From: Escherichia phage AV123 | DNA: 64,000 bases | Sequence record: OR352953.1 | Direction: 5' to 3' (one strand) | Part shown: one piece after another, positions 48,398 to 61,746 of the stretch | Position numbering within the stretch: position 1 is the first letter of the stretch | Layout of the letters: each line of letters starts with the position of its first letter | Program-made: the position numbers and the translations under genes | Notes under the pieces: model-generated | Seen by the model: only the letters and a program-made list of their open reading frames with translations | The model's database searches: none | Told to the model about the DNA's origin: nothing

Positions 48398-48592
48398 CTA
48401 TTGATTACGTTTTGCGAGTTCCATTTGGATAGCTAAACTGTGATCTCGTGCTTCCATATACTCTTTATATGTTTCATTAAGATGATCACGACAAACATCA
48501 CGCAGTTTAATCAGTTTATCTGTAGGGATACCACTAAGATCATCCCAAGATTTTACAACTTCACCAGTATCATTGATCCCAATGGTTTTCAT
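48398..48592 (-). CDS. hypothetical protein
   Basis: 64 aa ORF in a tightly packed minus-strand operon. Confidence 0.35.
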   Translation of the reverse strand: MKTIGINDTGEVVKSWDDLSGIPTDKLIKLRDVCRDHLNETYKEYMEARDHSLAIQMELAKRNQ

Positions 48593-48848
48593 CTACAACC
48601 TCCTTAATTGCTACAGCACAGTTTTTGCAGATACACTGCCCTTTACCTTTAGAAATCTGAATGTAAGGTTCATTTTCATTTTCGCCCTTACGTGAGTCAT
48701 ATATTACAGTATTGAAGCACACAACGCAAATATTTTTTAAGATTGTATACTTATCAACTTTCTTTTTTGTTTTAAAGTTAACTTCAATAACATCAGCCAT
48801 CAGTGTAACACTCCCAGTATATTGCTTTGTGACATAACCATAGAACAT
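48570..48848 (-). CDS. zinc-ribbon protein (two CxxC pairs)
   Basis: CVVCFN ... CICKNC in a 92 aa ORF. Confidence 0.4.
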   Translation of the reverse strand: MFYGYVTKQYTGSVTLMADVIEVNFKTKKKVDKYTILKNICVVCFNTVIYDSRKGENENEPYIQISKGKGQCICKNCAVAIKEVVDENHWDQ

Positions 48849-49078
48849 TCAACATTATCGTGACTACGTGAAAAACGTTCCCAAACCTCTTCATCGACTC
48901 GTAAAGCTATACAAGGATAGACGTTATCATTGATCATTTCAATTGAATAAACATCCATATTGTCTTCGTCTTCGATGAACATCATTGCAAACTGTTCTAA
49001 ATGTTTCCTAATGTAATGTACATCCTCTTCTGTAAGACCAATAACAAGATAACTTGCAACGATAACGCCATCTTTCAT
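48800..49078 (-). CDS. hypothetical protein
   Basis: 92 aa ORF, overlapping its neighbours by short distances. Confidence 0.35.
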   Translation of the reverse strand: MKDGVIVASYLVIGLTEEDVHYIRKHLEQFAMMFIEDEDNMDVYSIEMINDNVYPCIALRVDEEVWERFSRSHDNVECSMVMSQSNILGVLH

Positions 49079-49088
49079 CTATATCTCC

Positions 49089-49598
49089 TTAGCGATAAAA
49101 TTGATGTTCTTTGTAGCGGTACACTAGAACCATATCTTTTTCCCAGTGTGCTCTTATTGTAGATTTTTTAAAGTATAATGCTCCTTTTGTAATATCTAAT
49201 GCAATTCGTAATTCTGGAAAATGCGTATCGAGATAAAGTAGACGTTCTGCTATAGCCTTAGCTTCCTTCCACTTATCACGTTCCATAACGTTGAATGTCT
49301 TTGTGTAAGAGAATTGTCCTTTTTGAAACAAAACTTCTTTTATAGTATCAGGGAAATATGAATCTCTAGCCCTATTCAATACTACATTACCAACAGCAGA
49401 CATACCGCGCTTTCCTTGATTACGACTTTCTGCATAGATTGCACAAGCTAATAGATTTTCTTTACTATCACGCTTTGTACACTTGTGAACTACTTTAGCA
49501 GTTTTTACGTTTGCAGCTTCGGCTTGCGCCACAACAGGTGTAAATGTAAAAGCAGTTAAGGATAGTAACGCAATTGCGACAAAGGTTTTTATTGACAA
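49089..49598 (-). CDS. cell-wall hydrolase, SleB/CwlJ-like domain, with N-terminal signal peptide
   Basis: Signal-like N-terminus MSIKTFVAIALLSLTAFTFTPVVAQAEA. Core LACAIYAESRNQGKRGMSAVGNVVLNRARDSYFPDTIKEVLFQKGQFSYT matches the cell-wall hydrolase pattern (AR.I.GEARGE....AVA.VVLNR....FP..I..V..Q..QFS). TTG start with AGGAGG RBS. Confidence 0.6.
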   Translation of the reverse strand: MSIKTFVAIALLSLTAFTFTPVVAQAEAANVKTAKVVHKCTKRDSKENLLACAIYAESRNQGKRGMSAVGNVVLNRARDSYFPDTIKEVLFQKGQFSYTKTFNVMERDKWKEAKAIAERLLYLDTHFPELRIALDITKGALYFKKSTIRAHWEKDMVLVYRYKEHQFYR

Positions 49599-49660
49599 AC
49601 TTGCCTCCTATTTTGTTAAACGAACTTTTATTGTAACACAGAAGAGGCTGTTTTGCAAGT

Positions 49661-49681
49661 GGAGGGGGATAACCCCCCTCT
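49661..49681. other. GC-rich hairpin (GAGGGGG-ataa-CCCCCTC)
   Basis: Perfect 7 bp G/C stem between minus-strand genes, no clear U tract. Confidence 0.3.
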
Positions 49682-49690
49682 TACATTCTG

Positions 49691-50293
49691 TTAGATACTG
49701 TAAACCTTCGTATGAGTTACTACACCATCTTCTACAAAATCAATACGTTCTTGATCCGTAACTAGTGCAGACAATACTTTAAATTTAATTGTTACACGTT
49801 CAAAAGCTGGTTGACCATCTTTAAGATAATTATGTTCAGTTGTTACTGTCTTGTTTACAAAATCAACTTTTGCTTTACCGTTTTCGCGCAAGTGGAATGT
49901 TTTTCCTGCTTTATACACAATTTCAACATTACCTTCGAGAGTAATTCCTTCAAAAAGTTCACCCTCTTCTTCATTTTCTTCATTTTTGAACAGACGACGA
50001 AACTCTTCCATATCAAGATAAACAACATCTTCAGAATAACTATCAGTAAGGTATGTCTTACCATCCATTAACCCGAAATATTGCCAGATTGCAGAATAAA
50101 CATCACTAGTTGATCCAAGGGTTTCTCTGAGTTTAGTTCCACGGATTACTTCATAAACTTCAAAATTGAAACCAGACTGCAAAGCATTAAACAGTACATC
50201 ACTAACTTCTAAAGCATAATCTTCATTGTTGTCAATATCCACAAGAAAATTACCGCTGCGAATAAGTTTTTGACCTTCTAAAGTAATACCCAT
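49691..50293 (-). CDS. hypothetical protein (Ter-cluster neighbour)
   Basis: 200 aa ORF immediately downstream of TerD on the same strand. Confidence 0.4.
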   Translation of the reverse strand: MGITLEGQKLIRSGNFLVDIDNNEDYALEVSDVLFNALQSGFNFEVYEVIRGTKLRETLGSTSDVYSAIWQYFGLMDGKTYLTDSYSEDVVYLDMEEFRRLFKNEENEEEGELFEGITLEGNVEIVYKAGKTFHLRENGKAKVDFVNKTVTTEHNYLKDGQPAFERVTIKFKVLSALVTDQERIDFVEDGVVTHTKVYSI

Positions 50294-50320
50294 TGTTTTC
50301 TCCTCTTCTATTTAAAATAT

Positions 50321-50336
50321 GCGCCCCGAAGGGCGC
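50321..50336 (-). terminator. terminator-like hairpin after TerD
   Basis: GCGCCC-cgaa-GGGCGC with AUAUUUUAAA downstream on the minus strand. Confidence 0.4.
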
Positions 50337-50345
50337 TATGATTTA

Positions 50346-50942
50346 TTACTCGAACCAATCGTCGCCAGCGCCAAACGCTTTAACTACATCATAAATGTCA
50401 AGTCCAGCTTTACCTACACCATATGCTTTCAGTTTCCATTCGCTATCTTCCCGCACCAGGGAGGCAACGTGGCAAATGGTATTACCTGCAAGTTCTGGAG
50501 CCAAGAAGTCAAAATCCAGCAGTTCAACGTTACGTTCATCATCGAAGATTTTAAGGAAACCTTCGGTAGCGTGACCAAGGCGTTTCTTACCCGTTTCGTC
50601 ATCAATAGTGATTACGAATGCAATTTCCTGTGCTTCAGCAGAGATATTATCCAGTGTAACATCAATCTGCTCCATTTGTCCTACACCGTCACGAACATCT
50701 TCACCTGCAAAAGTAGAACGTTCAGGATCAAATTTCTGTGCGTAGCATACCAGGTGGCGAGGAGACAACAGTTCCGGCAGACCAGATGCATTGTGTCGGC
50801 AAATCAGAGCACTAACATCCAGATCCAGTTTTTCGTTAGATTTCCAAGAGAATTCCAGACGAATGCGTTTCAGTGCTGGTGCAATCTTTTTCAGAGAAAC
50901 TTTTTCGCTAGAACCTTTTTTCAGGGAAATTTTCTGAGTCAT
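50346..50942 (-). CDS. terD: TerD-family stress-response protein
   Basis: N-terminus MTQKISLKKGSSEKVSLKK is typical of TerD-domain proteins (ISL.KG..V.L.K). About 198 aa, acidic Ca-binding-like segments (IDVTLDN, ITIDDETG), GxGxA-like C-terminal region. RBS AAGGAG. Confidence 0.7.
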   Translation of the reverse strand: MTQKISLKKGSSEKVSLKKIAPALKRIRLEFSWKSNEKLDLDVSALICRHNASGLPELLSPRHLVCYAQKFDPERSTFAGEDVRDGVGQMEQIDVTLDNISAEAQEIAFVITIDDETGKKRLGHATEGFLKIFDDERNVELLDFDFLAPELAGNTICHVASLVREDSEWKLKAYGVGKAGLDIYDVVKAFGAGDDWFE

Positions 50943-51014
50943 AATTTATTATCTCCTTTGTTGTTAATTTACGTTGTCTATTTTACTAATCTTTTCTACA
51001 AAGTCAAGCGTTTT

Positions 51015-51809
51015 TTACGCTTTTGCTCCAAATTTTTTAACCCACTCGCCAAACTCTTCGGATAGCAGTTTATTGTAAAGTTCTTCGTCAGACAAGGACA
51101 AATCTGCAATACCGATAAAATCAACGTTATCGTATTCTTTTGCCAAGTCTTTCAGGAATTTAAAGTTTGCATTACCTACACCAACCATAAACCAGTAAAC
51201 AGGAGTGTTGCGGTGTTTGTTCAGCAAACTACGTACTGCTGAAGTATCCATGTTCTCCCCGTCAGTTTGGAAGAAAATCATTGCAGGAGTACGATCAACT
51301 TGTGCATCAGTATCTACAACCTGTTCTACAACAGTACGTGTAACTTCTACACGTTCTTTTTTACCAGTTAGTTTAGCAAGGAAACCCTTAGCCGGAACTT
51401 CTTCATACTCAACGACTTCGCGTGTAATATTTTTCATAGGTACACTACCGAAGTATGTATCATAGATCTCTTGCATTACTGGAGCATAAGCTGTACCACC
51501 ATTGATGCAAACATTAGACATACAAGAGCCGACATAATCATCATATACATCAGCCGTTGCAGGAGGCAGTTCAAAAGAAGAACTATTGAAAGCCCACATG
51601 TCAATCTGTGCATTATCATCAAACTTCATACCAAACGGCAGCAGCTTACCTACAAAATCACTGACAGTGCCATCACGATACAGCTCACACATACTACCCG
51701 AAATATCTAAGGCGCTACCTACACGAAGAACAACATCGTTAATCTTTTTCTTACGCAGGGATACAGTAAGAGTTTCTTGACGTTTTTTAAGACTGATTTT
51801 ATTGGACAT
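51015..51809 (-). CDS. von Willebrand factor A domain protein, TerF/TerY-like
   Basis: MIDAS motif DISGSM after a hydrophobic beta strand; N-terminus ISLKKRQETLTVSL is TerD-like. Directly adjacent to terD. RBS AAGGAG. Confidence 0.65.
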   Translation of the reverse strand: MSNKISLKKRQETLTVSLRKKKINDVVLRVGSALDISGSMCELYRDGTVSDFVGKLLPFGMKFDDNAQIDMWAFNSSSFELPPATADVYDDYVGSCMSNVCINGGTAYAPVMQEIYDTYFGSVPMKNITREVVEYEEVPAKGFLAKLTGKKERVEVTRTVVEQVVDTDAQVDRTPAMIFFQTDGENMDTSAVRSLLNKHRNTPVYWFMVGVGNANFKFLKDLAKEYDNVDFIGIADLSLSDEELYNKLLSEEFGEWVKKFGAKA

Positions 51810-51810
51810 A

Positions 51811-52080
51811 TTATTTCTCCTTTCTGACTGTAATGTTAGTAACTTCTAAATCCACTTCTACCACTTCTGTATCATATAAAATACAGTTAAGTTGACCTCT
51901 TTGTGAACCGTTCAGACACATTGCTTGGTTTGTATTAACCTTAATAAACACTAAGTTTCTGAACGTATCTAAACCAGCATCTTGATAGGCAACATAATAT
52001 ACGAATGTATCACCTGTGTCAAGTTCTCCAAAACATTTAGGTTCATCTGATTTGTCGTCTTTGATATTAAATTTAAGCAC
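51811..52080 (-). CDS. hypothetical protein
   Basis: 89 aa ORF within the Ter-associated operon. Confidence 0.35.
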   Translation of the reverse strand: MLKFNIKDDKSDEPKCFGELDTGDTFVYYVAYQDAGLDTFRNLVFIKVNTNQAMCLNGSQRGQLNCILYDTEVVEVDLEVTNITVRKEK

Positions 52081-52636
52081 TGTCTTCTCCTTTACCTGCT
52101 CTCAAGCCTAAATAGAAAGCCTCTCTGGTGATCTTTTGCAACTCGTTTAAAGAGATAGTTACAACTAAATCATCTTCAATTTCTAGCTTTGAGTCTTCTT
52201 CTGTCTCAATGCAAGTATTATGCACTTTGTGGTAAGGATTGTCAACACGTTTAAATTTATTATTTTCAGTGCTGAAGAAGCAATCTGGATCTTCTTCCCC
52301 ATCACCCCAACCCTGGTTAGGATCTTCTTCAGATCTTTCTGTTGGGATCTCGCCTGTAAAGTGCTCTTCTAATACCAGAGCAATCCCATCTCCAAGATCG
52401 GAAGAGAACATCAAATTACAAACTTCTTCCCAAGGCATAGACCACTTAAATCTTTTACGATTGCCATGTTTATCTTCTTCGTTAGAGAAAACACTACCAT
52501 AGCTATCATAATTCCCATACATCTCTTCGACAACCTTACCACCTTTCAAAAGAAATAGGTAGCAAGGAGAGCCATCGAAAGAGGTAGAAAGAGCAGCATT
52601 ACCAGACTCTTTGCACAAGAAACTAAAACACCCCAT
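52073..52636 (-). CDS. hypothetical acidic protein
   Basis: 187 aa ORF, Asp/Glu-rich, in the operon. Confidence 0.4.
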   Translation of the reverse strand: MGCFSFLCKESGNAALSTSFDGSPCYLFLLKGGKVVEEMYGNYDSYGSVFSNEEDKHGNRKRFKWSMPWEEVCNLMFSSDLGDGIALVLEEHFTGEIPTERSEEDPNQGWGDGEEDPDCFFSTENNKFKRVDNPYHKVHNTCIETEEDSKLEIEDDLVVTISLNELQKITREAFYLGLRAGKGEDSA

Positions 52637-52836
52637 TATACACCAGCCTTAAGATCAATTAAAGCCAAAGTTGTTTCAGAGTGTGTTTGCTCGTCTACAG
52701 GTGCAGTCATATGATAATACAAAAAATCTTCGGCATCATACCAATCTGATTCTTGACCTTGTTTCCAACCATCAATGAAAGCATCTTCCATAATGGTTTG
52801 CAATTCTTCACGAGTTAAGTGAATATCTTTACTCAT
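52636..52836 (-). CDS. hypothetical protein
   Basis: 66 aa ORF whose boundaries abut its neighbours. Confidence 0.35.
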   Translation of the reverse strand: MSKDIHLTREELQTIMEDAFIDGWKQGQESDWYDAEDFLYYHMTAPVDEQTHSETTLALIDLKAGV

Positions 52837-53069
52837 TACACATTCTCCTCTTTTACCAATTCCATTGTTGAATTGTCAAAACCATCTTTAGAAGAATAGG
52901 TATAGACAGCACGTAGTTCTCGCAGGACAGTGAATACATTAGGATCATCTAACCAAGCATCCTGGAGGAGAACATAACGATCTTCATTGTCATACTGGAC
53001 AGCAATCATAGAGCCAGACAGTTTGTAAATTTTAATATTCATAATATATTTCTCCTTAAAGTAGACCAC
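52836..53069 (-). CDS. hypothetical protein
   Basis: 77 aa ORF whose boundaries abut its neighbours. Confidence 0.35.
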   Translation of the reverse strand: MVYFKEKYIMNIKIYKLSGSMIAVQYDNEDRYVLLQDAWLDDPNVFTVLRELRAVYTYSSKDGFDNSTMELVKEENV

Positions 53070-54159
53070 GTTTAACAGTTTGAATCATACCATCTTCAAG
53101 AGATTGCACTTCTTGAATGTAATCAATACGAGCAGCACGGGCTTCAGTGTTGATTCGGTTAGTTTCTTCCAACATTTTAACTAAGTTTTCTTGATCACGA
53201 CGCAATGTTTCAATATCCAATACTTGACGATTAGCAAGTTGTGTAGCTTCAATCTGGTTTTGTGCAGCCAGATCACTACCCATTGCAATAGCAGCATTAA
53301 ATTCATTCAGTACGTTGTTCTGTGTATCGGCTGCTTTCTTCTGGCGCAGACTTTCAATATACATAGAAAAGTTTGCAGAGTAAGCAGGAATAACATTGTT
53401 CACAATATTACGGGCTGATCGCATCAAACTTGCAGATACTTTCTGCATACTTTGTACACGTGGCCCCATCTGAACGCACAGTAAGCGTAAGGCTTTCAGG
53501 TCTGCAATACGAATTTCAAGCAGATCCATAGTGTCACGAGTACGTTGACGCTCTTCTACTTCATTTTCAGGTAGTGTATTAAGGCGAACTTCTTCTTTTT
53601 CATAAGTAGCTGTTAGAAGCTCTATATCCCTGTTTAAGCTAAGAGCATATTTTGCAATAGCCTCCTCTAAACGTTGCAGATATCGTAAAGAATCTTCTTC
53701 TTTTTTCAAGTCTGTTTGGAGTGTCTTTACCAAACCCTCAATACGATTATTGATGGTGTCAAATTCTCCAAACAAATCTTCTTTCATACCTAATACTTTC
53801 TTAACTAACTTACCTAAACCTTTAGATTGTTTAATAGAATTAGGATCAAGTTGCTTTGCTTGCTTAATAAGTGCAGTTAAACGTTCACTCATTTCATCTC
53901 CCTGAGATGAACGCTGGTGTTTAAGCACTTCAGCATTAAGGTTACGAAGAGTAAGTCCTGCATCAGCACCAACTTGTTCAATCTCTTCACGAGACATTGG
54001 AGGCAGCATTTGTACAGGTCGTGCAACAGCAGGGGCATATACAGGACTTGCATCCATAGCACTTGGAGCAAACAAAGACTTACTTTTTTCTGTTGTTGCC
54101 GTGAATACACTCATTTCAGACGGTTTGCTTTTTACGGCACTGATAAAAGGACTGGACAT
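53056..54159 (-). CDS. telA: TelA-like (toxic anion resistance family) protein, putative
   Basis: 367 aa, predominantly helical/coiled-coil with a Gln/Leu/Arg/Glu-rich profile and size typical of TelA/KlaA proteins. Lies between terD/vWA and terC. RBS GGAGG. Assigned by overall character and context, not by a verified motif. Confidence 0.45.
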   Translation of the reverse strand: MSSPFISAVKSKPSEMSVFTATTEKSKSLFAPSAMDASPVYAPAVARPVQMLPPMSREEIEQVGADAGLTLRNLNAEVLKHQRSSQGDEMSERLTALIKQAKQLDPNSIKQSKGLGKLVKKVLGMKEDLFGEFDTINNRIEGLVKTLQTDLKKEEDSLRYLQRLEEAIAKYALSLNRDIELLTATYEKEEVRLNTLPENEVEERQRTRDTMDLLEIRIADLKALRLLCVQMGPRVQSMQKVSASLMRSARNIVNNVIPAYSANFSMYIESLRQKKAADTQNNVLNEFNAAIAMGSDLAAQNQIEATQLANRQVLDIETLRRDQENLVKMLEETNRINTEARAARIDYIQEVQSLEDGMIQTVKRGLL

Positions 54160-54227
54160 TCAATTTCCTCCATATTCTTTAGTAGATGGTGATACCTCTG
54201 TACCACCATCATAACACAAATTAAGTA

Positions 54228-55079
54228 TTAAACAAACATATCTAAATAATTTGTAGTAATAAATGCTCCATCTGCTTCCAGATTAACATAACCAGTAGCA
54301 TTAGTGGTTAAGAAATCCAGATCGAAGGACTCTTTAACACCCCGTACCTCAACACGAGAGATATCGAATACAGGTAGTGTAACAGCCTCTTCGTGCAATA
54401 CCGTACCTTTGTAGGTTGCCTTAATGATAAACTTGATATTACCCGTTCCAGCATCATACAAAACACTTTCAAACCCTTTGAGAGTATATTTATCACCAGA
54501 AGTGAAGTGCAAAGTTGCTTTGTTTACAGTACGTTTTTTACGAGGAGTTCCTTTCACACGTTTATGATCACTACGTTTTTTGTACTTAGGAATGAATACA
54601 AACGATACATTCTGAAGAAAGGTATCAACATCAAGGATTTTAATATCCTCTGTTGCAGCAAATTTTGAAGTCGTTGCATCAAAATGCTTTTCCCTGCGAT
54701 CATACATAAAGATATCAAACCGATCTTCTAAATCAAACAAATTATGTATTTTAATTTCAGAATGCTTGCGCATTGCAGCAACCTTGAACTCTTCAAAACG
54801 TGGGTGTTCTACAAGTTCTTCAAGTTTTACACCAAAGACAGTATATTGCTTCGGAGTTTTTTCTGGTGTTGGCATTACAGAAGCATAATCCCCGATTGCG
54901 CTCTTAAAGCAAAATTGTTCTTGACCTGTATTTTTACCAACGAATTTACAGTATTCATCATTGTGCATACTTTCCTTAGTAGTACCAACAAACTCAAAAC
55001 CATCTTTATTCTTCTCAAGAATTTCTTGATTAAAGATCCAACCTTCCAGGTGATATACTTTACCAACTTCTAGTTTCAT
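54228..55079 (-). CDS. hypothetical protein
   Basis: 283 aa ORF, no recognisable motif. Confidence 0.4.
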   Translation of the reverse strand: MKLEVGKVYHLEGWIFNQEILEKNKDGFEFVGTTKESMHNDEYCKFVGKNTGQEQFCFKSAIGDYASVMPTPEKTPKQYTVFGVKLEELVEHPRFEEFKVAAMRKHSEIKIHNLFDLEDRFDIFMYDRREKHFDATTSKFAATEDIKILDVDTFLQNVSFVFIPKYKKRSDHKRVKGTPRKKRTVNKATLHFTSGDKYTLKGFESVLYDAGTGNIKFIIKATYKGTVLHEEAVTLPVFDISRVEVRGVKESFDLDFLTTNATGYVNLEADGAFITTNYLDMFV

Positions 55080-55114
55080 CTGTTTCTCCTTCTTATTTAA
55101 TCTGTATTAAATTA

Positions 55115-55705
55115 TTAACGACGACGTGAGCTACTAAAACTACGTTTCGACGAAGAATAACTTTTCGAAGACTTACTATAAGAGCTAATAGGACTTGAGT
55201 AAGACTTACGAGCAGAGTAATCACTATTCACTTTTGTTGTTGACGGGCGTGAATACGTTTGTACACTTTGCTGCTTAATTGTGTTTTGTTTAGTGGTTGT
55301 ATATGTATTCCCTTGTTTATCATAAAAACGATGCTTTTGTGTTGTATATGCTTTACTATTAGTTGTAGGAGCAGCGTTGTTATTGATAATTGTTGTATTG
55401 CTACCGCCATCTCTATAACCACCACCGCCACTATTACCACTCAACATATGACCAAGAAGCATACCTGTAGCAAACTCACCTACACCAGAAGAACCACTGC
55501 CGCCTCCTTGCACAACAACTGTTGAAGGTTGTGCAGGTGCTGCTTGAACAACTTGAGGTGCAGGCTGATTTACATATTGTTCATCTACCATCTGATTTGG
55601 TGTTTGTTGGTAACGTTGATTTTGTACATTTTCAGAATCATCACAACCTACCAGCAATGCACTACCTAAAACAACTGCAACAATAAAAGATTTAATGTTT
55701 TTCAT
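55115..55705 (-). CDS. lipoprotein with Gln/Asn-rich and glycine-zipper segments
   Basis: MKNIKSFIVAVVLGSALLVGCDD (signal peptide with lipobox L-V-G-C). GGGSGSSGVGEFATGMLLGHMLSGNSGGGG glycine-zipper-like. Ser/Lys/Arg-rich C-terminus. ATG at 55705 has an AGAGGG RBS. Confidence 0.55.
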   Translation of the reverse strand: MKNIKSFIVAVVLGSALLVGCDDSENVQNQRYQQTPNQMVDEQYVNQPAPQVVQAAPAQPSTVVVQGGGSGSSGVGEFATGMLLGHMLSGNSGGGGYRDGGSNTTIINNNAAPTTNSKAYTTQKHRFYDKQGNTYTTTKQNTIKQQSVQTYSRPSTTKVNSDYSARKSYSSPISSYSKSSKSYSSSKRSFSSSRRR

Positions 55706-55898
55706 TTGTAACCCTCTCATTTAAAGTCTCAACACAATTTTTAAAATCCCTAGAGAAACAATACATCTGTTCTCCGTTCCTGTTGATAGTAATTGTATGG
55801 TTATCAATGTATGTTGTCAAGATAAAAATCAAACAAAATAACCCTAAAGCAAAACAAATATTTTCAAACAGAATCCAAAGAACACGTAAAACTACCAT
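55692..55898 (-). CDS. small membrane protein (1 TM)
   Basis: 68 aa with hydrophobic N-terminal segment LWILFENICFALGLFCLIFIL. Confidence 0.35.
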   Translation of the reverse strand: MVVLRVLWILFENICFALGLFCLIFILTTYIDNHTITINRNGEQMYCFSRDFKNCVETLNERVTNEKH

Positions 55899-55915
55899 CA
55901 GATCACCTCAACAAA

Positions 55916-55933
55916 GCCCCCGAAGGGGCTTAA
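55916..55933. other. GC-rich hairpin (AAGCCCC-cgaa-GGGGCTT) immediately after the terC stop
   Basis: Perfect 7 bp stem, no clear U tract on either strand. Confidence 0.3.
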
Positions 55934-55937
55934 TGAA

Positions 55938-56915
55938 TTAAGCAACAGTCTGGTCTTCTTTTTCAGGGAAGATTAAACTTGCAATAACACCCAACCCAAG
56001 AGTACCTAACACAATATACATACTGATCGTCGGATCAATGTGTGCTGGCAGGAAACTCATTTTTGCGTGCAGAGTTTCTGCAAACGGGTGATACATCAGT
56101 TTTACACCCACAAATACCAGGACTACGATAACTGCTTTCTCCAGATGAACCAAATACTTCAGTGCAACACTAAGAACAAAGAACAGAGCACGTAAACCTA
56201 AGATTGCACAGAGCATCGAAGAGAACACCAGTAGAGGTTCTTGTGTCACTGCAATTACTGCTGGAACAGAGTCTACTGCAAAGATTACGTCAACCATTTC
56301 CATTACAAACACACAAACCAGAGCCGGAGTTGCTACACGAACACCATTTTTGATTGTGAAGAACTTCTCACCATCCATCTGATCAGATACAGGGAACAGC
56401 TTACGAACAATGCGAGTAGCCCAGTGTTTAGAGTAATCAACTTCTGCATCATTATCTCCAGCGAATACCATTTTAGCCGCACAGAAAAGGATGACAGCAC
56501 CGAAGAAGATATTAACATACCAGCCCAAACTCAACAAGTAAGTACCTACTGCTACAAACACACCTCGGAAGACAATCGCACCTGCAATACCCCAAAGTAG
56601 AATCTTGTGCTGCAAGTGTGTGCTTTTAATACCAAAACTTGCGAAGACTGCCACAAATACTACTAAGTTATCTACAGAAAGAGATTTCTCCAACACATAC
56701 CCACTCAAAAACAAGCTCGCAAAATCAGCACCGTGTTGGAAGTATACAAAACCATAGTAGGCTAATGATACCCCAATCCAGAAAATTGACCAGCCAATTG
56801 CAGATTTAAATGAAATTTCTTTGTTTTCTCTGTGTCCAAAGAAGTCAATACAAATCGACAAGACTAAAATACCCACTAAAACAACCACATCAATAATTGG
56901 GAAACCCAGTTGCAT
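55938..56915 (-). CDS. terC: TerC-family integral membrane protein
   Basis: Multiple TM segments and the TerC hallmark motif YVLEKSLSVDNLVVF. 325 aa. Strong RBS AAAGAGGAGAAAAG. Confidence 0.75.
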   Translation of the reverse strand: MQLGFPIIDVVVLVGILVLSICIDFFGHRENKEISFKSAIGWSIFWIGVSLAYYGFVYFQHGADFASLFLSGYVLEKSLSVDNLVVFVAVFASFGIKSTHLQHKILLWGIAGAIVFRGVFVAVGTYLLSLGWYVNIFFGAVILFCAAKMVFAGDNDAEVDYSKHWATRIVRKLFPVSDQMDGEKFFTIKNGVRVATPALVCVFVMEMVDVIFAVDSVPAVIAVTQEPLLVFSSMLCAILGLRALFFVLSVALKYLVHLEKAVIVVLVFVGVKLMYHPFAETLHAKMSFLPAHIDPTISMYIVLGTLGLGVIASLIFPEKEDQTVA

Positions 56916-56992
56916 TCTTTTCTCCTCTTTAATGCGGAGGACAATCCTCCGCTCTATGTCTTATACTATAAACTGTTTTTAAAGAAAGTCAA

Positions 56993-57241
56993 CTAGTTCA
57001 GTTCTGTAATTTTAAGTTTATCTTCTTTGTTAATGACAGGGAAAGCTACAGCATCACCTACGTCATCAATAAAGCAAATAGCAATACCACCTTCCACTTT
57101 GCTAATCTGACCATTAAAGGCGTGATACGGGGCAGGAACTTGATCTCCATCTTCAAGGAGAATAGCCTCGTAAACCTTGCCGATAGTACAATCACGAGTG
57201 TTTCTAAATTTTTCAAGCACTTCAACATTTACTTTACGCAT
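56993..57241 (-). CDS. hypothetical protein
   Basis: 82 aa ORF, no recognisable motif. Confidence 0.35.
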   Translation of the reverse strand: MRKVNVEVLEKFRNTRDCTIGKVYEAILLEDGDQVPAPYHAFNGQISKVEGGIAICFIDDVGDAVAFPVINKEDKLKITELN

Positions 57242-57255
57242 ATAAAAATCCTCTC

Positions 57256-57462
57256 TTATTTGTTAGATTGAAAGATACCACGAAGTACCGCAAGAATGAA
57301 CGTCACACAGACTACACTCCAAAACGTTACAGGAACATGATGCCAGTCTAAGCCGATAATGTCAATCATATAGTTGTATGCTAAAAGCAGTAGCCAACTA
57401 GGGATTAACACAATCAAAAACACAACAATAAAACAACCTAATACTGCTAAAACACCTGCCAT
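57256..57462 (-). CDS. small membrane protein (2 TM)
   Basis: 68 aa, two hydrophobic helices (VLAVLGCFIVVFLIVLIPSWLLLLAY; VTFWSVVCVTFILAVL). Confidence 0.4.
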   Translation of the reverse strand: MAGVLAVLGCFIVVFLIVLIPSWLLLLAYNYMIDIIGLDWHHVPVTFWSVVCVTFILAVLRGIFQSNK

Positions 57463-57471
57463 ACTTTCTCC

Positions 57472-58188
57472 TTATTTCAGTTTGTAAACAATTACATTTA
57501 AACCTTTGTTTACTAGAGTTTCTTCGATCATAAGTTTTACAATACTCCAAGAACCTCCAGCCAAACCACAACCAAGCATTGGTAAACCTACAATTTTACC
57601 GCCTGAAGATACAACATCGTCTCCCATACTATCTAACGCATTGTAGATAGCTTCATAATTCAGGTCACGCTTACCTTCCTCACGACGACTATAACCATAT
57701 TGTCCATATAAATTATAAATTGTCAAATTGTTTTCTGTATACTTAGTAAACGTACCTAATTTTTTATAATCACCACGTTTAGTGGCACAATCTGCTTTAA
57801 ACGCACCAGGCCACTTACTTTTAATTTTTGGTGCAATACCACTACCCATAGTGCAAAAACAGTTACAGCAGTGTGCTATAGCGTCTATATCGCCTCTCTC
57901 GGCTGCTGCTAAAAGATCACCGTATACCTCAATGATACCTGCTGGATAACTTGTTACAATTTCATCTTCCCAGTACATTTTCTCTACACCACCGATCAGT
58001 GCAAAGTTTTGTGTAATGCGATCATCAATATAGTTAAGACCTGAAACATACACAGCATATTCATCCTGTGCTGTAATACCTTGTACACGAATTCTTAAGA
58101 CACCATCTTTATCTGTTGCTACACGCCCAAAATCTTTTTCTGTAATATTGGTGATAGGATCTCCGAAAGTCATTACTTTATTAGACAT
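57472..58188 (-). CDS. macrodomain protein, TARG1/OARD1-like (putative ADP-ribose-processing hydrolase)
   Basis: IEVYGDLLAAAERGDIDAIAHCCNCFCTMGSGIAPKIKSKWPG and VGLPMLGCGLAGGSWSIVKLMIEETLVNKGLNVIVYKL parallel the two conserved blocks of TARG1/OARD1-type macrodomains (..AHC.S.DC.MGAGIA......P; ..P.IGCGL....W..V..MIEE.........V). ATG at 58188 has an AAGGGG RBS. Confidence 0.55.
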   Translation of the reverse strand: MSNKVMTFGDPITNITEKDFGRVATDKDGVLRIRVQGITAQDEYAVYVSGLNYIDDRITQNFALIGGVEKMYWEDEIVTSYPAGIIEVYGDLLAAAERGDIDAIAHCCNCFCTMGSGIAPKIKSKWPGAFKADCATKRGDYKKLGTFTKYTENNLTIYNLYGQYGYSRREEGKRDLNYEAIYNALDSMGDDVVSSGGKIVGLPMLGCGLAGGSWSIVKLMIEETLVNKGLNVIVYKLK

Positions 58189-59038
58189 AATAATCCCCTT
58201 TAACATTAGATTTGTTGATAATGTTGCTTTCAAAAAATTGACGTAGGAAATCAAAGTTCTCTTTATATTTTTCAATGTTATTGTAGCCTTCTGCAAGGCA
58301 ACCAAAGAACAGTTGTTCTACATAATACAAAGGAAGCTGTGAAAGTGCAATTTTAAAATCAACTTCGCTTTGACTCATTAGATACTTAATAGGACGAACC
58401 AAACATTTAGCATCAGTTTCTTGCTTAATCATCTTAATAAAAGCTGCCAGGTTATTGATATAGTTGAAGTTAAGTGCAGCTTCGGTGTTGGCTTCTGTAC
58501 CTTCATACTTTGCAAAGTACAGGAAAAACGTATCGTTTTCAACACCTTCTTTGTCTAAAATTTCAATAAGTTTTTCTTCGTGCGTTCCTGTAATATTAAC
58601 ATCATCAATGAAAATCAGAGTTTTATTACCCCAGAAATCACGATTGATAGAGAAAGTGTCACCATCGATCAAAGCCTTACGATCTTCTTTGCTAAGAAAT
58701 CCATAATCATTGATATAGCTCACTTTACGATGAACGATATCCCACTCCACTGGTTTACCACCTTTGATAGAGATTAGGTAGTTGAGGTGATCTACAAAAT
58801 GTTCAGATAACACTGTAGCTGCATTTTTCACATAGTTATATGGAGATGGAATAACAACAAAACTTTCATTTACCAGTCGTTCTTCATACTTGGAAAAGAA
58901 ACTTTCAGCCAGAATGCGCCCCATTCTTTTTGCTGCCTGGTTACTACCAAACTTTAGTTTGGAATAATCTGCAATGTTAAATTTTGCTTCCTTCAGGTTA
59001 GTAAAAGTATTAGCAAAATGTTGAATTTGATTACGCAT
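58181..59038 (-). CDS. phosphoribosyltransferase-like protein
   Basis: PRPP-binding-type motif KTLIFIDDVNITGTHEE (hydrophobic strand, DD, TGxT). 285 aa. RBS AAGAGGAA. Confidence 0.5.
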   Translation of the reverse strand: MRNQIQHFANTFTNLKEAKFNIADYSKLKFGSNQAAKRMGRILAESFFSKYEERLVNESFVVIPSPYNYVKNAATVLSEHFVDHLNYLISIKGGKPVEWDIVHRKVSYINDYGFLSKEDRKALIDGDTFSINRDFWGNKTLIFIDDVNITGTHEEKLIEILDKEGVENDTFFLYFAKYEGTEANTEAALNFNYINNLAAFIKMIKQETDAKCLVRPIKYLMSQSEVDFKIALSQLPLYYVEQLFFGCLAEGYNNIEKYKENFDFLRQFFESNIINKSNVKGDYYV

Positions 59039-59687
59039 TAATAAGTTCCTCTTTTTTAAGTTTAGCCAACAAGTCTTCTGGATTAATAATATGACAGAAC
59101 TTCATCCCTATGTCAACAGCTTTTCCATCATAAATCAAACTATCTCCAACGTGTAAAATCTCCTCTGGTGCGAGATCAAACGTCACCATTTCATCAAAAG
59201 AGAGTTTAAAAAACCTAGGATCTGGTTTACACAAGCAAAACTCGTCAGAAAAATGCATAAAGTCGAATGGTAATTTTGTTAAACCAGAATATACAGCTAA
59301 GAAACTACCTGGTACAAAATTAGTATTGCTCTTAATACTCAAAGAGTAGGTTGAACTTAGCTCTTCCAACTTCTTGCAAAGTTCAGGATTCAATGTTGGA
59401 GGATGTTTTATAAACATTGCCAAACAATCTCTTTTTAACCCATCCACTTTATCAAGATCAATGTTCAAACGAGTAGAAAGTGTTACCCAAGCATCCTTAG
59501 ACGTTCCACAAATGCCTTTTTCTGCTTTTAAATCCAAGAGAGTTTTTACCTCTTTATATACGGTAGCTGCTTCTGCCTCAGAACAAGAGGCATACTCGGC
59601 AATAACCTTGTTACGCTCTTCTGCATACAAAGGGTTAGCAGTAATAAGAGTATTCCATACATCAAAAGAAATATGCTTAACAGTCAT
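59031..59687 (-). CDS. HAD-superfamily hydrolase-like protein
   Basis: N-terminal motif I-like ISFDVWNTL (second Asp replaced by Trp, atypical) and C-terminal motif IV-like HVGDSLIYDGKA. ATG at 59687 has a GGAGG RBS; the track's start at 59705 is TTG. Confidence 0.45.
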   Translation of the reverse strand: MTVKHISFDVWNTLITANPLYAEERNKVIAEYASCSEAEAATVYKEVKTLLDLKAEKGICGTSKDAWVTLSTRLNIDLDKVDGLKRDCLAMFIKHPPTLNPELCKKLEELSSTYSLSIKSNTNFVPGSFLAVYSGLTKLPFDFMHFSDEFCLCKPDPRFFKLSFDEMVTFDLAPEEILHVGDSLIYDGKAVDIGMKFCHIINPEDLLAKLKKEELINA

Positions 59688-59856
59688 TTTTAATCCTCCG
59701 TCCAAAAGAATATCATCTGCTTAATTTTATTGATTTCTTGATGTAGTAACTTTCCAGCATGTGATTGATCTTTAATATTGACAGCAAGAATTTCAAGTTC
59801 CGTTAGTTTTTCTTGGATAGCTTTATATTCATCATCTGTAAGCATTTTCTTCCCCT

Positions 59857-60060
59857 TTAGAATGGTAATCTTTGTATGTCACTTATCCCCACACCAAGAA
59901 GTCTAGCAACATCCTTATCTAAAAGCAACTCTTTTTGTTCTAAAATGTTAATCAGATCTCCTAATACTTCTTTAATGTCACGATCATTTTTAGCAACGTG
60001 ACCACCTGCTGTATCAACTTTATCTTTAAAAACAAAATAATGATCCATAATATCCTCCAT
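59857..60060 (-). CDS. hypothetical protein
   Basis: 67 aa ORF, no recognisable motif. Confidence 0.3.
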   Translation of the reverse strand: MEDIMDHYFVFKDKVDTAGGHVAKNDRDIKEVLGDLINILEQKELLLDKDVARLLGVGISDIQRLPF

Positions 60061-60067
60061 ATAAATA

Positions 60068-60088
60068 AAGGAGGCTTTCGCCTCCTTT
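60068..60088 (-). terminator. intrinsic terminator after the AAA ATPase gene
   Basis: AAAGGAGGC-tttc-GCCTCCTTT with AUUUAUAU downstream on the minus strand. Confidence 0.45.
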
Positions 60089-60094
60089 TATCAC

Positions 60095-61255
60095 TTAGTA
60101 AGAACGACCACCAAACACATACTCTGTGTAGTTTTTACGTTCTTTGTTTTTAATAACAACTTCAATGTTGTTGCCTTTATCATCGGTGAACACAAAGTGA
60201 TAACCGTCACCACCCATTGTACGGATGTGTTTTTCATCATACATCAGCAAGATACGGTCTACACCCCAGTAGTAGTCACCTTCTTCATCTTTATCTTCTA
60301 CGGTAACGACTCCTTCCATTTCAGGAAGATGCTCTTCTCCTAGCTTATGGTCTACAGCTACAACATAACGATTACCGCTAAACAAACCTTGTGCTGTCAT
60401 ACCGTCAATATCGGTATCTGACGAAACATCTCCTGTACGATCTACACCGTTAACTTTCAGAAGTTTAACCTCTTTTGCAGCATAGCGGTGTTCAGTAATA
60501 CTGATACCCATCAATGCAAGTGCATCAGAGAATTTGTCATTAGGGTAACGGTTAAGTTCTTCTACTAATGACTGAACAATATCAAAGTTCAAATCCACGG
60601 AGAGATTATAAAGCGTTTCAAAATCTGGTAAGAAGGCTTTGTTCTCCAGATTTTTAGCCAGATAATCATCCATAGTAGCTTTAGGTAGTTTCTTATAGCT
60701 AAAACTGTAGAAAATACGGCTAGGACGATTACGCAAAAATTCTGATACATAACCATCATTTTTAGTCAATACAAACAGTTTGTCGTAGCCACCAACACCA
60801 TCCAACAGGGTAAGCAAACCATCTTGTGCATCTTTTTCAGCATACAGTTTATCAAATTCATCGATCATAATCATCACAGGTTGTGTGATTTTAGACATAA
60901 AATTGATAAAACCTTCGCCATTAAAAGCACTGCCGATAGAAATAGTAGGAATACCCATTTCACGAAGAGCAGAAGACAGCATTTTAGCTTGCAAAGTTTT
61001 ACCGCTACCTTTCGTACCCTCAAGGAGAACACCTGTGTTTTTACCTTTGCGGCTAAGGAACGTTTTGATAATACGTTCTGATTTATCATCAGTATCACCG
61101 TATGTTACTGAAGGCACTTCCATATCGTTTTTAGGATACAGGAAGAACTCACCACTTTGAGTAACACCTACACCAAAAGTTCCTGCTGGAATTTCTTCAA
61201 TATCTGTACCAGATTTCTGACGCAGGAAGATTTGATTGCCGAATACTGTAAACAT
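60095..61255 (-). CDS. AAA-type ATPase
   Basis: Walker A GTKGSGKT and Walker B VMIMIDEFDK. 386 aa. Confidence 0.6.
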   Translation of the reverse strand: MFTVFGNQIFLRQKSGTDIEEIPAGTFGVGVTQSGEFFLYPKNDMEVPSVTYGDTDDKSERIIKTFLSRKGKNTGVLLEGTKGSGKTLQAKMLSSALREMGIPTISIGSAFNGEGFINFMSKITQPVMIMIDEFDKLYAEKDAQDGLLTLLDGVGGYDKLFVLTKNDGYVSEFLRNRPSRIFYSFSYKKLPKATMDDYLAKNLENKAFLPDFETLYNLSVDLNFDIVQSLVEELNRYPNDKFSDALALMGISITEHRYAAKEVKLLKVNGVDRTGDVSSDTDIDGMTAQGLFSGNRYVVAVDHKLGEEHLPEMEGVVTVEDKDEEGDYYWGVDRILLMYDEKHIRTMGGDGYHFVFTDDKGNNIEVVIKNKERKNYTEYVFGGRSY

Positions 61256-61275
61256 AGTTTTCTCCTCTATTTAAT

Positions 61276-61746
61276 TTAGTCAGATTCCCAAATGTTGTCT
61301 TTCTTAACCCACATTCGTTGATTATCTGAACCTCTATAACGTTTCGTTGTTGGTTGATTCATATCATACTTACCATCTATCACTATGTCAACCAGTTTTT
61401 TAATTTTCTCTGGAATTTCTTCAAAAAGATATCCTGTATATAAGACAATATCTTTTTTGTTTCCAAAACAATCTCTTACCTTCTCAAGAACATACTCTAC
61501 AGTGTCAATGTTCTCTTTGTCAAGAGGTTCACCACCTAAAACTGTTAATCCTTTAATGAAAGGTCGAGATAAATCTTCCAAGATAAGATCTAATGTTTCA
61601 GCAGTGAACTCTTGTCCGTAGTTATACGACCAGGCTTTCTGGTTAAAGCAGCCACGGCAACCGTGGCTACAACCGCTCACCCACAAAGAGCATCTTACAC
61701 CGTCACCGTTGAGCATGTCAACAGGTTCATATCCGGCGTAATTCAA
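61276..61746 (-). CDS. nrdG: anaerobic ribonucleoside-triphosphate reductase activating protein (radical SAM)
   Basis: CSHGCRGC (CxxxCxxC radical-SAM cluster motif) near the N-terminus. 156 aa. Start overlaps the nrdD stop. Confidence 0.8.
   Translation of the reverse strand: MNYAGYEPVDMLNGDGVRCSLWVSGCSHGCRGCFNQKAWSYNYGQEFTAETLDLILEDLSRPFIKGLTVLGGEPLDKENIDTVEYVLEKVRDCFGNKKDIVLYTGYLFEEIPEKIKKLVDIVIDGKYDMNQPTTKRYRGSDNQRMWVKKDNIWESD

Follow-up and report, generated by a model that had tools for sequence, protein, structure and literature searches.

Within a 64,000-nucleotide stretch of Escherichia phage AV123 (sequence record OR352953.1; hereafter the window), we analyzed a block of minus-strand genes at positions 49691-59705, which is best explained as a reduced, phage-adapted Ter system of three separable modules. 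The first would be a translationally coupled pair of genes for a HAD-superfamily enzyme and a phosphoribosyltransferase (PRTase) of the PRTase_3 family, which would convert phosphoribosyl pyrophosphate (PRPP) into a nucleotide-like or nucleoside-like small molecule. The second would be a macrodomain of the SCO6735 type. The third, membrane-proximal module would comprise a TerC/Alx-type metal exporter, TelA, a TerF-type von Willebrand factor A (vWA) protein with a metal ion-dependent adhesion site (MIDAS) and TerD, with small membrane proteins and a lipoprotein interleaved. We regard the identities of the parts as close to certain. The explanation as a whole, with its mechanism, is put forward tentatively, since we judge its chance of being right to be slightly below even, and the functional model of the block, every functional step of which we infer, is more doubtful still. 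The record of phage Paula labels every open reading frame (ORF) of the block as phi92 gp171-gp187, and the block is a conserved accessory region, gp171-gp187, of the phi92-like phages of the genus Justusliebigvirus.

Profile searches identified four Ter proteins. The TerD-domain protein (phi92 gp172; 50346-50942, minus strand) matched Pfam PF02342 over residues 5-180 (E 5.1e-28; 98 bits against a cut-off of 25.3). The TelA-family protein (gp178; 53056-54159, minus strand) matched PF05816 (E 5.1e-34) over 306 residues, corresponding to profile positions 13-330 of 332, and falls in phrog_5890, 'tellurite resistance'. The integral membrane protein of the TerC/Alx family (gp182; 55938-56915, minus strand) matched PF03741 (E 1.2e-38) and reached 322.8 bits with the NCBIfam TerC/Alx model TIGR03718, above its cut-off of 246.4. 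An earlier note on this DNA had made these three calls, which the searches support, and its coordinates and minus-strand assignments for the named genes agree with the ORF list. It had also described a vWA protein as TerF/TerY-like with a MIDAS motif. The MIDAS is intact, its DISGS, GGT and TDGE residues being readable in the sequence, and the protein (gp173; 51015-51809, minus strand) is a stand-alone vWA domain of the TerF C-terminal type (Pfam vWA-TerF-like, PF10138, E 1.4e-38), not of the TerY type. TerC is the best conserved protein of the block, with 95% protein identity between Justusliebigvirus and the sister genus Phapecoctavirus (L003 13629-14603). Its third-codon-position identity at conserved residues is 0.76, compared with 0.53-0.59 for the Ter, PRTase and HAD genes, which suggests either a more recent exchange between the genera or an unusually tight constraint.

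The HAD-superfamily enzyme (gp187; 59031-59687, minus strand) is subfamily IA-like and is encoded by the first gene of the pair. It scored 26.3 bits against the Pfam Hydrolase profile (cut-off 26.4), and its matches to the NCBIfam HAD-IA, type II dehalogenase and YjjG-like models were all under their cut-offs. We aligned 11 lineages, namely the window phage and homologues in L003-L010, L014 and L015. Motif I, which reads F-D-V-W-N-T in the window phage, was invariably F-D-V/F-W-N/K-T-L (11 of 11; D-x-W, not D-x-D), and the Ser of motif II, the Lys of motif III and the GD...D of motif IV were invariant as well. The second gene, which overlaps the first by 8 nucleotides, encodes a ComF-like type I PRTase (gp186; 58181-59038, minus strand; PF15610 PRTase_3, E 1.5e-41). 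Thus, the PRTase-like and HAD-like labels of the earlier note were both sound, with motifs I-IV of the HAD protein conserved across the alignment. The PRPP-binding loop is invariant and the fold is that of ComF and type I PRTases, from which we conclude that the PRTase is probably active. It differs from Helicobacter pylori ComF (7p0h) in having an extra C-terminal helical domain (approximately residues 185-279 of the model) and in lacking the zinc-finger context. Relatives outside the subfamily number in the hundreds, at 38-59% identity.

In every context examined, a HAD homologue lay upstream of the PRTase, either directly or with two inserted ORFs between them. Linkage of this pair to Ter genes was sampled in nine contexts. 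Ter genes (TerC, TerD, TerF-type vWA and/or TelA) were found no more than 10 kb from the pair in the window phage and in lineages L008, L009, L014 and L015, and gene order differed among the latter four. Ter genes and the pair also occur together in L017 and L018, divergent relatives of about 151 kb. The Ter gene set is no chance grouping; it recurs in several phage lineages. Its combination with PRTase and HAD genes, which the earlier note had named as a known bacterial neighborhood, agrees with the description in PMC7824862, where Anantharaman 2012 is cited. In four settings the pair had no adjacent Ter genes: in Xanthomonas phage XaC1 together with its relative L007, where the TerD of XaC1 itself lies 165 kb away; in a Rhizobium phage; in Caulobacter phage CcrColossus, whose tested neighbors of the pair carry no Ter domain; and on Rhizobium plasmid pRL10, where the pair is isolated. 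HAD-PRTase_3 is thus a separable, self-contained two-gene cassette that is often, but not always, Ter-linked. In XaC1-type jumbo phages (L004 12941-14527; L007 10967-12562), the pair is followed by a protein of about 530 amino acids with DUF2828/DUF7788 instead of Ter genes, and a macrodomain, a NUDIX protein, an RNA ligase and a tRNA nucleotidyltransferase are encoded nearby.

The macrodomain protein (gp185; 57472-58188, minus strand, with an alternative start at 58206 in some records) matched Pfam Macro over residues 106-217 (E 2.7e-7) and belongs to phrog_335. Its N-terminal extension of about 85 residues is missing in Phapecoctavirus. The protein had been called TARG1-type, which is right as to fold class: it matched TARG1 with an E value of 1.6e-10 over the whole domain, SCO6735 (5e3b) with 1.2e-15 and BT1257 (2fg1) with about 1e-15. 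However, the catalytic Lys84/Asp125 dyad of TARG1 is lost. In the HMMER alignment to TARG1 (4j5q), K84 is replaced by Gln (LITK/LYGQ) and D125 by Ala (GCGLD/GCGLA), exactly as in SCO6735. This Gln, at the position of Gln85 in SCO6735, is part of a GQYG motif. Aligned to 5e3b and 2fg1, gp185 shares the ALC1/TARG1-like fold and the Gln at the catalytic-Lys position, and it keeps the Gly-rich phosphate loop GCGLAGG found in SCO6735. By these residues, gp185 is a member of the SCO6735/BT1257 subclass of ALC1/TARG1-like macrodomains. SCO6735 uses Gln85, strips ADP-ribose off thymidine residues of DNA and rescues Escherichia coli from DarT, and roles for Q85 and G128 have been described (PMC9411070).

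Two kinds of anti-DarT factor are known from phages, the antitoxin mimic AdfB (PMC11481870) and the chimallivirus macrodomain AdfM, which defeats DarTG2 and which a 2026 report described as the first example of its type (PMC13309987). Like AdfM, gp185 is a stand-alone phage macrodomain; unlike AdfM and DarG2, which keep the catalytic Lys, it does not, and it lacks the DarT-binding C-terminal domain of DarG2. The DarG macro model of PADLOC matched gp185 (1.2e-13), and NCBIfam NF048014 did so at 49 bits over positions 4-147 of 338. A full-length DarG identity was rejected, as NF048014 stayed far under its cut-off of 250 and the DarT-binding C-terminal domain had no match; Pfam revealed no DarT gene in the block. 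The earlier note had placed the macrodomain in a metabolite-processing module. That grouping is not supported, because the Ter/PRTase clusters of the other phages (L008, L009, L014 and L015) have no macrodomain and the nearest characterized relative of gp185 is a hydrolase of ADP-ribosylated thymidine in DNA. In XaC1-type phages, the macrodomain lies 8 kb from the PRTase. Because of its likeness to SCO6735 and its absence from other phage Ter clusters, we read it as a probable independent counter-defense gene, and more plausibly as an orphan anti-DarT2 enzyme than as a Ter part. A literature search found no experiment on the macrodomains of the subfamily Stephanstirmvirinae, to which the phi92-like phages belong.

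In the functional model, the block genes would be transcribed with the replication and nucleotide-metabolism arm of the genome, partly from host-type promoters. During infection, TerC, TelA, the vWA protein and TerD would act at the host inner membrane, buffering metal-ion and envelope stress. The set might thereby shield the cell from competitors, among them pore-forming colicins and superinfecting phages, as plasmid ter clusters do for bacteria, and the product of the HAD-PRTase pair might serve as a ligand of the Ter set. The macrodomain would act separately, taking ADP-ribose off DNA thymidine and so neutralizing DarT2-type toxins. PMC7824862 and PMC6141743 put forward the same model for the Ter systems of phages; the former proposes action against superinfecting phages and a role in xenobiotic tolerance. 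Both cite Whelan 1995 for the phage inhibition and colicin resistance conferred by plasmid ter clusters, and TerC/Alx proteins export Mn2+ and contribute to the metalation of exported enzymes (PMC10550928, PMC10197570, PMC13274385). We argue for a role during infection because strictly lytic phages keep this trimmed Ter set and TerC is so highly conserved across genera.

Several observations weigh against this model. No block ORF matched TerB in Pfam, the TerD domain occurs in one block ORF only, and the vWA protein carries no TerD domain. Because TerB and multiple TerD paralogues are absent, the phenotypes of plasmid ter clusters may not transfer to the phage. None of the PADLOC defense models matched the Ter proteins, the macrodomain-to-DarG match being the only hit, and we rejected the Ter proteins as parts of a known defense system on this result. 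In the searched literature we found no experiments on any phage Ter gene. As to the small molecule, the pair need not serve the Ter proteins, since it is also found without adjacent Ter genes. Moreover, the HAD protein keeps the Asp nucleophile, but Trp takes the place of the general acid at Asp+2 in 11 of 11 lineages, and a phosphatase step from nucleotide to nucleoside is therefore not secure. The Asp+2 position of HAD motif I is also occupied by residues other than Asp in dehalogenases, phosphonatase and P-type ATPases. Finally, the macrodomain and PRTase genes are neighbors in both genera, and here the former overlaps the stop codon of the latter by 8 nucleotides, an arrangement that fits a shared macrodomain-PRTase pathway too, and such a pathway is possible.

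One alternative would remove the block from phage biology altogether, as host DNA or a bacterial island captured beside a prophage. Its protein families do have bacterial ancestry, and this is all that speaks for such an origin. A megablast search with 49691-59705 against 50,697 phage records returned 54 that cover at least 80% of the query; by identity, 2 matches were at 99% or above and 54 at 95-99%. The top matches were Escherichia phage ALITA (99.2%), inny, Paula, the BASEL phages and phi92 (97.8%), and the best matches all belong to Stephanstirmvirinae, genus Justusliebigvirus. By this similarity, the window is a Justusliebigvirus, that is, a phi92-like E. coli phage. In more than 50 lytic phage genomes, the block keeps its position and is 98-99% identical. 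Its GC content of 34-39% is like that of the rest of the window, and megablast found no match to it in 5,426 complete E. coli genomes; nor did tblastn find the PRTase on enterobacterial ter plasmids. Since the GC content fits, the phage matches are abundant and E. coli genomes lack the block, it is phage DNA and not a host island. Capture from a host, the outcome that would have undone the earlier reading, is refuted by these searches, and we give it practically no credence.

The pair, with or without the macrodomain, could instead be a cassette for nucleotide or nicotinamide adenine dinucleotide (NAD)/ADP-ribose metabolism, serving replication, base modification or salvage, with no functional tie to Ter; its adjacency to Ter genes would then reflect only a tendency of accessory genes to cluster in the non-structural arm. 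The settings of the pair apart from Ter genes agree with this. It stands alone on pRL10 and has neighbors without a Ter domain in CcrColossus; in XaC1 and L007 it sits beside RNA ligase, thymidine kinase, NUDIX and tRNA nucleotidyltransferase genes, with TerD of XaC1 far off; in the Rhizobium phage its neighbors are an NMN (nicotinamide mononucleotide) adenylyltransferase/NUDIX gene and a PurA-like gene; and in the window it lies directly downstream of NrdD and NrdG. However, proximity to Ter genes within 10 kb in five phage lineages with differing gene orders is hard to obtain by chance, and PF15610 was itself defined from Ter neighborhoods (PMC7824862). Co-occurrence of Ter genes and the pair also persists at the level of the genome, because Ter genes lie at other sites in the genomes of XaC1 and of the Caulobacter phages (PMC7824862). 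We consider this alternative unlikely, though it deserves to be taken seriously. If the Ter set does act at the membrane, it might serve counter-defense and not competitor exclusion, stabilizing the inner membrane against pore-forming or depolarizing abortive-infection effectors. This would accord with the protection from pore-forming colicins ascribed to plasmid ter clusters by Whelan 1995 (via PMC8386662 and PMC9796965), with the likely anti-DarT macrodomain next door and with conservation of the block in strictly lytic phages. None of the phage records examined, however, carries an anti-defense annotation, and the literature found favors superinfection exclusion (PMC7824862, PMC6141743), so that we think this role improbable.

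TerC could also chaperone or export metals on behalf of exported phage proteins (for instance, the SleB-like hydrolase encoded after the block), or adjust Mn2+ for phage enzymes, with TerD and the vWA protein as Ca2+/Mg2+-binding partners. TerC is over the cut-off of a metal-homeostasis family and exceeds all other block proteins in conservation; TerC proteins load exoenzymes with metal in the course of Sec export (PMC10550928); and a Hydrolase_2 gene follows the Ter genes in the window phage, Phapecoctavirus, L014, L017 and L018. Yet the lineages with the adjacent Hydrolase_2 gene share synteny by descent, no such hydrolase occurs in L008, L009 or L015, and no metal requirement is known for the SleB-like hydrolase. 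We therefore hold this to be very unlikely. A bolder variant is a long shot in our estimation, if not quite as remote: the HAD(D-x-W)-PRTase_3 pair would be a mobile cassette that makes or destroys a PRPP-derived, nucleoside-like signal, through which TerD, vWA, TelA and TerC as membrane effectors would blunt host immunity, and the Gln-type macrodomain would represent a new, lysine-independent anti-DarT2 class. If true, membrane-disrupting abortive infection, for example, would be countered in large lytic phages, and gp185 would be an AdfM-like factor in coliphages of the BASEL collection. Setting these alternatives beside the reduced, three-module Ter system, we keep the latter as the preferred reading. 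What Ter proteins do in bacteria has long been a puzzle, and a Ter role in lytic infection is testable because the carriers (BASEL Bas61-type phages and phi92) are genetically tractable. Among the BASEL Justusliebigvirus phages, EmilieFrey and JohannJBalmer have an identical TerD.

The structural genes of the window phage occupy the plus strand up to about 35.6 kb. On the minus-strand arm, in the order of transcription, a UvrD helicase, tRNA-synthetase-like genes, NrdD, NrdG and an AAA ATPase precede the block, and a SleB-like cell-wall hydrolase, glycosyltransferases, a primase-helicase, a DNA polymerase and Dam follow it. Thus, the block does lie near replication and nucleotide-metabolism genes, as had been claimed, with NrdD, NrdG and the AAA gene upstream and primase-helicase and polymerase downstream. 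Most block genes abut or overlap. Sizeable intergenic gaps exist only upstream of TerC and TerD, and both hold a sigma-70-like promoter, identified by consensus match only: TTGACT-16-TATAGT upstream of TerC (56965-56992, minus strand) and TTGACT-16-TAAAAT upstream of TerD (50980-51007, minus strand). Directly 3' of TerD is a terminator-like GC hairpin with a T-rich tail (50321-50336, minus strand), and another hairpin-plus-T site, a predicted terminator at 60067-60088, lies 3' of the AAA gene. Judging from these signals, the block seems to comprise several transcription units, and its gene position together with the sigma-70-like promoters makes early expression plausible.

A GC-rich hairpin with a perfect 8-bp stem, GCGGAGGA-TTG-TCCTCCGC, lies at 56934-56952 in the TerC leader, 3' of the promoter-like site and 5' of the ribosome-binding site. 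It has no T-run after it on the minus strand, and the phage Paula record gives it as a plus-strand terminator. We considered a riboswitch upstream of TerC, prompted by the model name 'R_switched_Alx'; this was ruled out, as an Rfam search at E<=1 over 48500-61500 returned no family, including the yybP-ykoY Mn2+ riboswitch, which is found ahead of many alx/terC genes. Like E. coli Alx and Bacillus subtilis MeeF and MeeY, which act in Mn2+ export and metalation (PMC10197570, PMC10550928), phage TerC belongs to the TerC/Alx subfamily, with the curated cut-off exceeded. It differs from them in having no yybP-ykoY riboswitch upstream, but a sigma-70-like promoter and a simple hairpin instead.

Comparison with related phages, which the earlier note had proposed, revealed the same order in Phapecoctavirus: HAD, PRTase, Macro, TerC, gp181, lipoprotein, TelA, gp175, gp174, vWA, TerD and SleB. 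Between the two genera, identity is 49% for HAD, 65% for PRTase, 66% for vWA, 79% for TelA and 81% for TerD. Compared with the terZABCDEF/terWXY clusters of IncHI2 plasmids and E. coli O157 islands, which are associated with tellurite resistance, phage inhibition and colicin resistance, the block shares the TerC, TerD-domain and TerF-type vWA families, and those clusters likewise have an associated PRTase/HAD biosynthetic set (per PMC7824862). In contrast to them, the block lacks TerB, has one TerD domain and not five paralogues, and includes TelA; its PRTase is a PRTase_3 with no detectable match on enterobacterial ter plasmids, and its DNA has no similarity to the E. coli genomes searched. 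Ter systems of large and jumbo phages (PMC7824862) are of the same kind as the block: TerC, TerD, TerF-type vWA and TelA, with or without PRTase and HAD, in lytic phages and with the same proposed role. Examples are Acinetobacter phage vB_AbaM_ME3, the Caulobacter jumbo phages, phiKp34, PhiPsa374 and ZCKP1. Stephanstirmvirinae differ from these in their single TerD, in a macrodomain that adjoins the PRTase and, in the window, overlaps its stop codon, in about ten interleaved lineage-specific small ORFs and in several apparent transcription units.

A claim of novelty for a Ter set inside a phage fails because both the block and the concept are already known. Many phage records annotate the block as stress or tellurite-resistance proteins, and phi92 gp172, gp173 and gp178 were listed in 2015 as TerD or tellurite-resistance proteins (PMC4690881). 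Iyer, Anantharaman, Krishnan, Burroughs and Aravind (2021; PMC7824862) described Ter systems in phages, 'relatively complete' with PRTase and HAD in ME3 and as abbreviated TerD/TerC/TerF/TelA operons in Caulobacter phages, and noted 'certain other related smaller tailed phages'. Four ter genes, with the same superinfection idea, were reported in 2018 for the phAPEC8-like Klebsiella phage ZCKP1 (PMC6141743), and the same quartet is present in Klebsiella phage phiKp34 (PMC8386662) and Pseudomonas phage PhiPsa374 (PMC9796965). The block thus adds no new kind of system. What our analysis adds is the cassette nature of the HAD-PRTase_3 pair, the D-x-W site of the HAD protein, the SCO6735-type macrodomain and the setting aside of three candidate ORFs.

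These three ORFs, gp171, gp175 and gp179, had been put forward as new Ter components, and their distribution does not bear this out. None has a Pfam or NCBIfam match; like the other small ORFs, they fall only in narrow PHROG families. The N-terminal approximately 140 amino acids of gp175 (52073-52636, minus strand) form a domain that is common among phages and recurs in hundreds of their proteins, with a Ter gene in 0 of 3 contexts examined, and we rejected gp175 as a Ter component on this gene context. Its predicted model is confident, and no structural relative of it was found. The 283-amino acid gp179 (54228-55079, minus strand) is an ORFan: 2 clusters were found among 5.8 billion proteins, both from near-identical phages, and only its C-terminal approximately 80 residues are shared with a Phapecoctavirus protein. 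Clade-restricted gp171 (200 amino acids; 49691-50293, minus strand) had 12 representative clusters among 1.8 billion proteins. It is absent in Phapecoctavirus SKA64, and in two divergent phage contigs of about 151 kb, with the same overall synteny, it occupies the same slot between TerD and the SleB-like hydrolase. This position is conserved by descent, and therefore nothing ties gp171 functionally to Ter. With homologue sets so small and clade-bound, gp179 and gp171 were rejected as conserved Ter components, and neither BLAST nor phmmer linked them to unknown proteins of other phage Ter clusters.

We also considered a common unknown protein of about 300 amino acids after TerD across phage clusters and rejected it: only those of L009 and L015 are related, and neither resembles a window protein. 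These two, at L009 11536-12432 and L015 1574-2557, are unannotated homologues (24% identity, E 1e-8) encoded directly after the TerD gene or genes of unrelated Ter clusters. The L009/L015 protein is a better candidate for a Ter-associated component than any ORF of the window.

A predicted lipoprotein and small membrane proteins are interleaved in the block as described, at 55115-55720, 55692-55898 and 57256-57462. The first is the predicted lipoprotein gp180 (minus strand; phrog_21570), with a signal peptide, the lipobox L-V-G-C and Asp at +2. In E. coli, Asp at +2 of a lipoprotein is an inner-membrane retention signal. Its Gly/Ser-rich hydrophobic core, GVGEFATGMLLGHMLSG, is 36% identical in Phapecoctavirus; Pfam gave no match to gp180, and there is a weak match in the XaC1-like contig L007 (5736-6131). 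The small membrane protein gp181 (minus strand; 68 amino acids; phrog_17591) is 49% identical in Phapecoctavirus and matched DUF6693 weakly, at 21.5 bits and under the cut-off. The small hydrophobic protein gp184 (minus strand; 68 amino acids; phrog_16065) has two hydrophobic segments but no known domain and is 60% identical in Phapecoctavirus. The remaining small ORFs, all on the minus strand, are gp183 (56993-57241; 82 amino acids; phrog_17459 only), the two ORFs gp176 and gp177 (52636-53069; PHROG-only matches) and gp174 (51811-52080; 89 amino acids), which is 64% identical in Phapecoctavirus, where a second gp174 paralogue is also found (34% identity).

The SleB-like hydrolase (PF07486) carries an apparent Sec signal peptide, and its gene comes after the Ter genes in every related phage of about 145-150 kb examined (window 49089-49598; L003 21529-22050; L014 6940-7431; L017 8732-9250; L018 8929-9444). 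Its place beside the Ter genes may be inherited from a common ancestor or be tied to a TerC-type metalation of enzymes that are exported. Four records named 'Campylobacter phage' with host C. jejuni (MG065639, MG065645, MG065656 and MG065689) are 98% identical to the window phage over the whole 10 kb, and near-identical TerD proteins of Justusliebigvirus or Phapecoctavirus also appear under Serratia, Acinetobacter and Pseudomonas phage names. Such off-host record names are likely host mislabels or contaminants.

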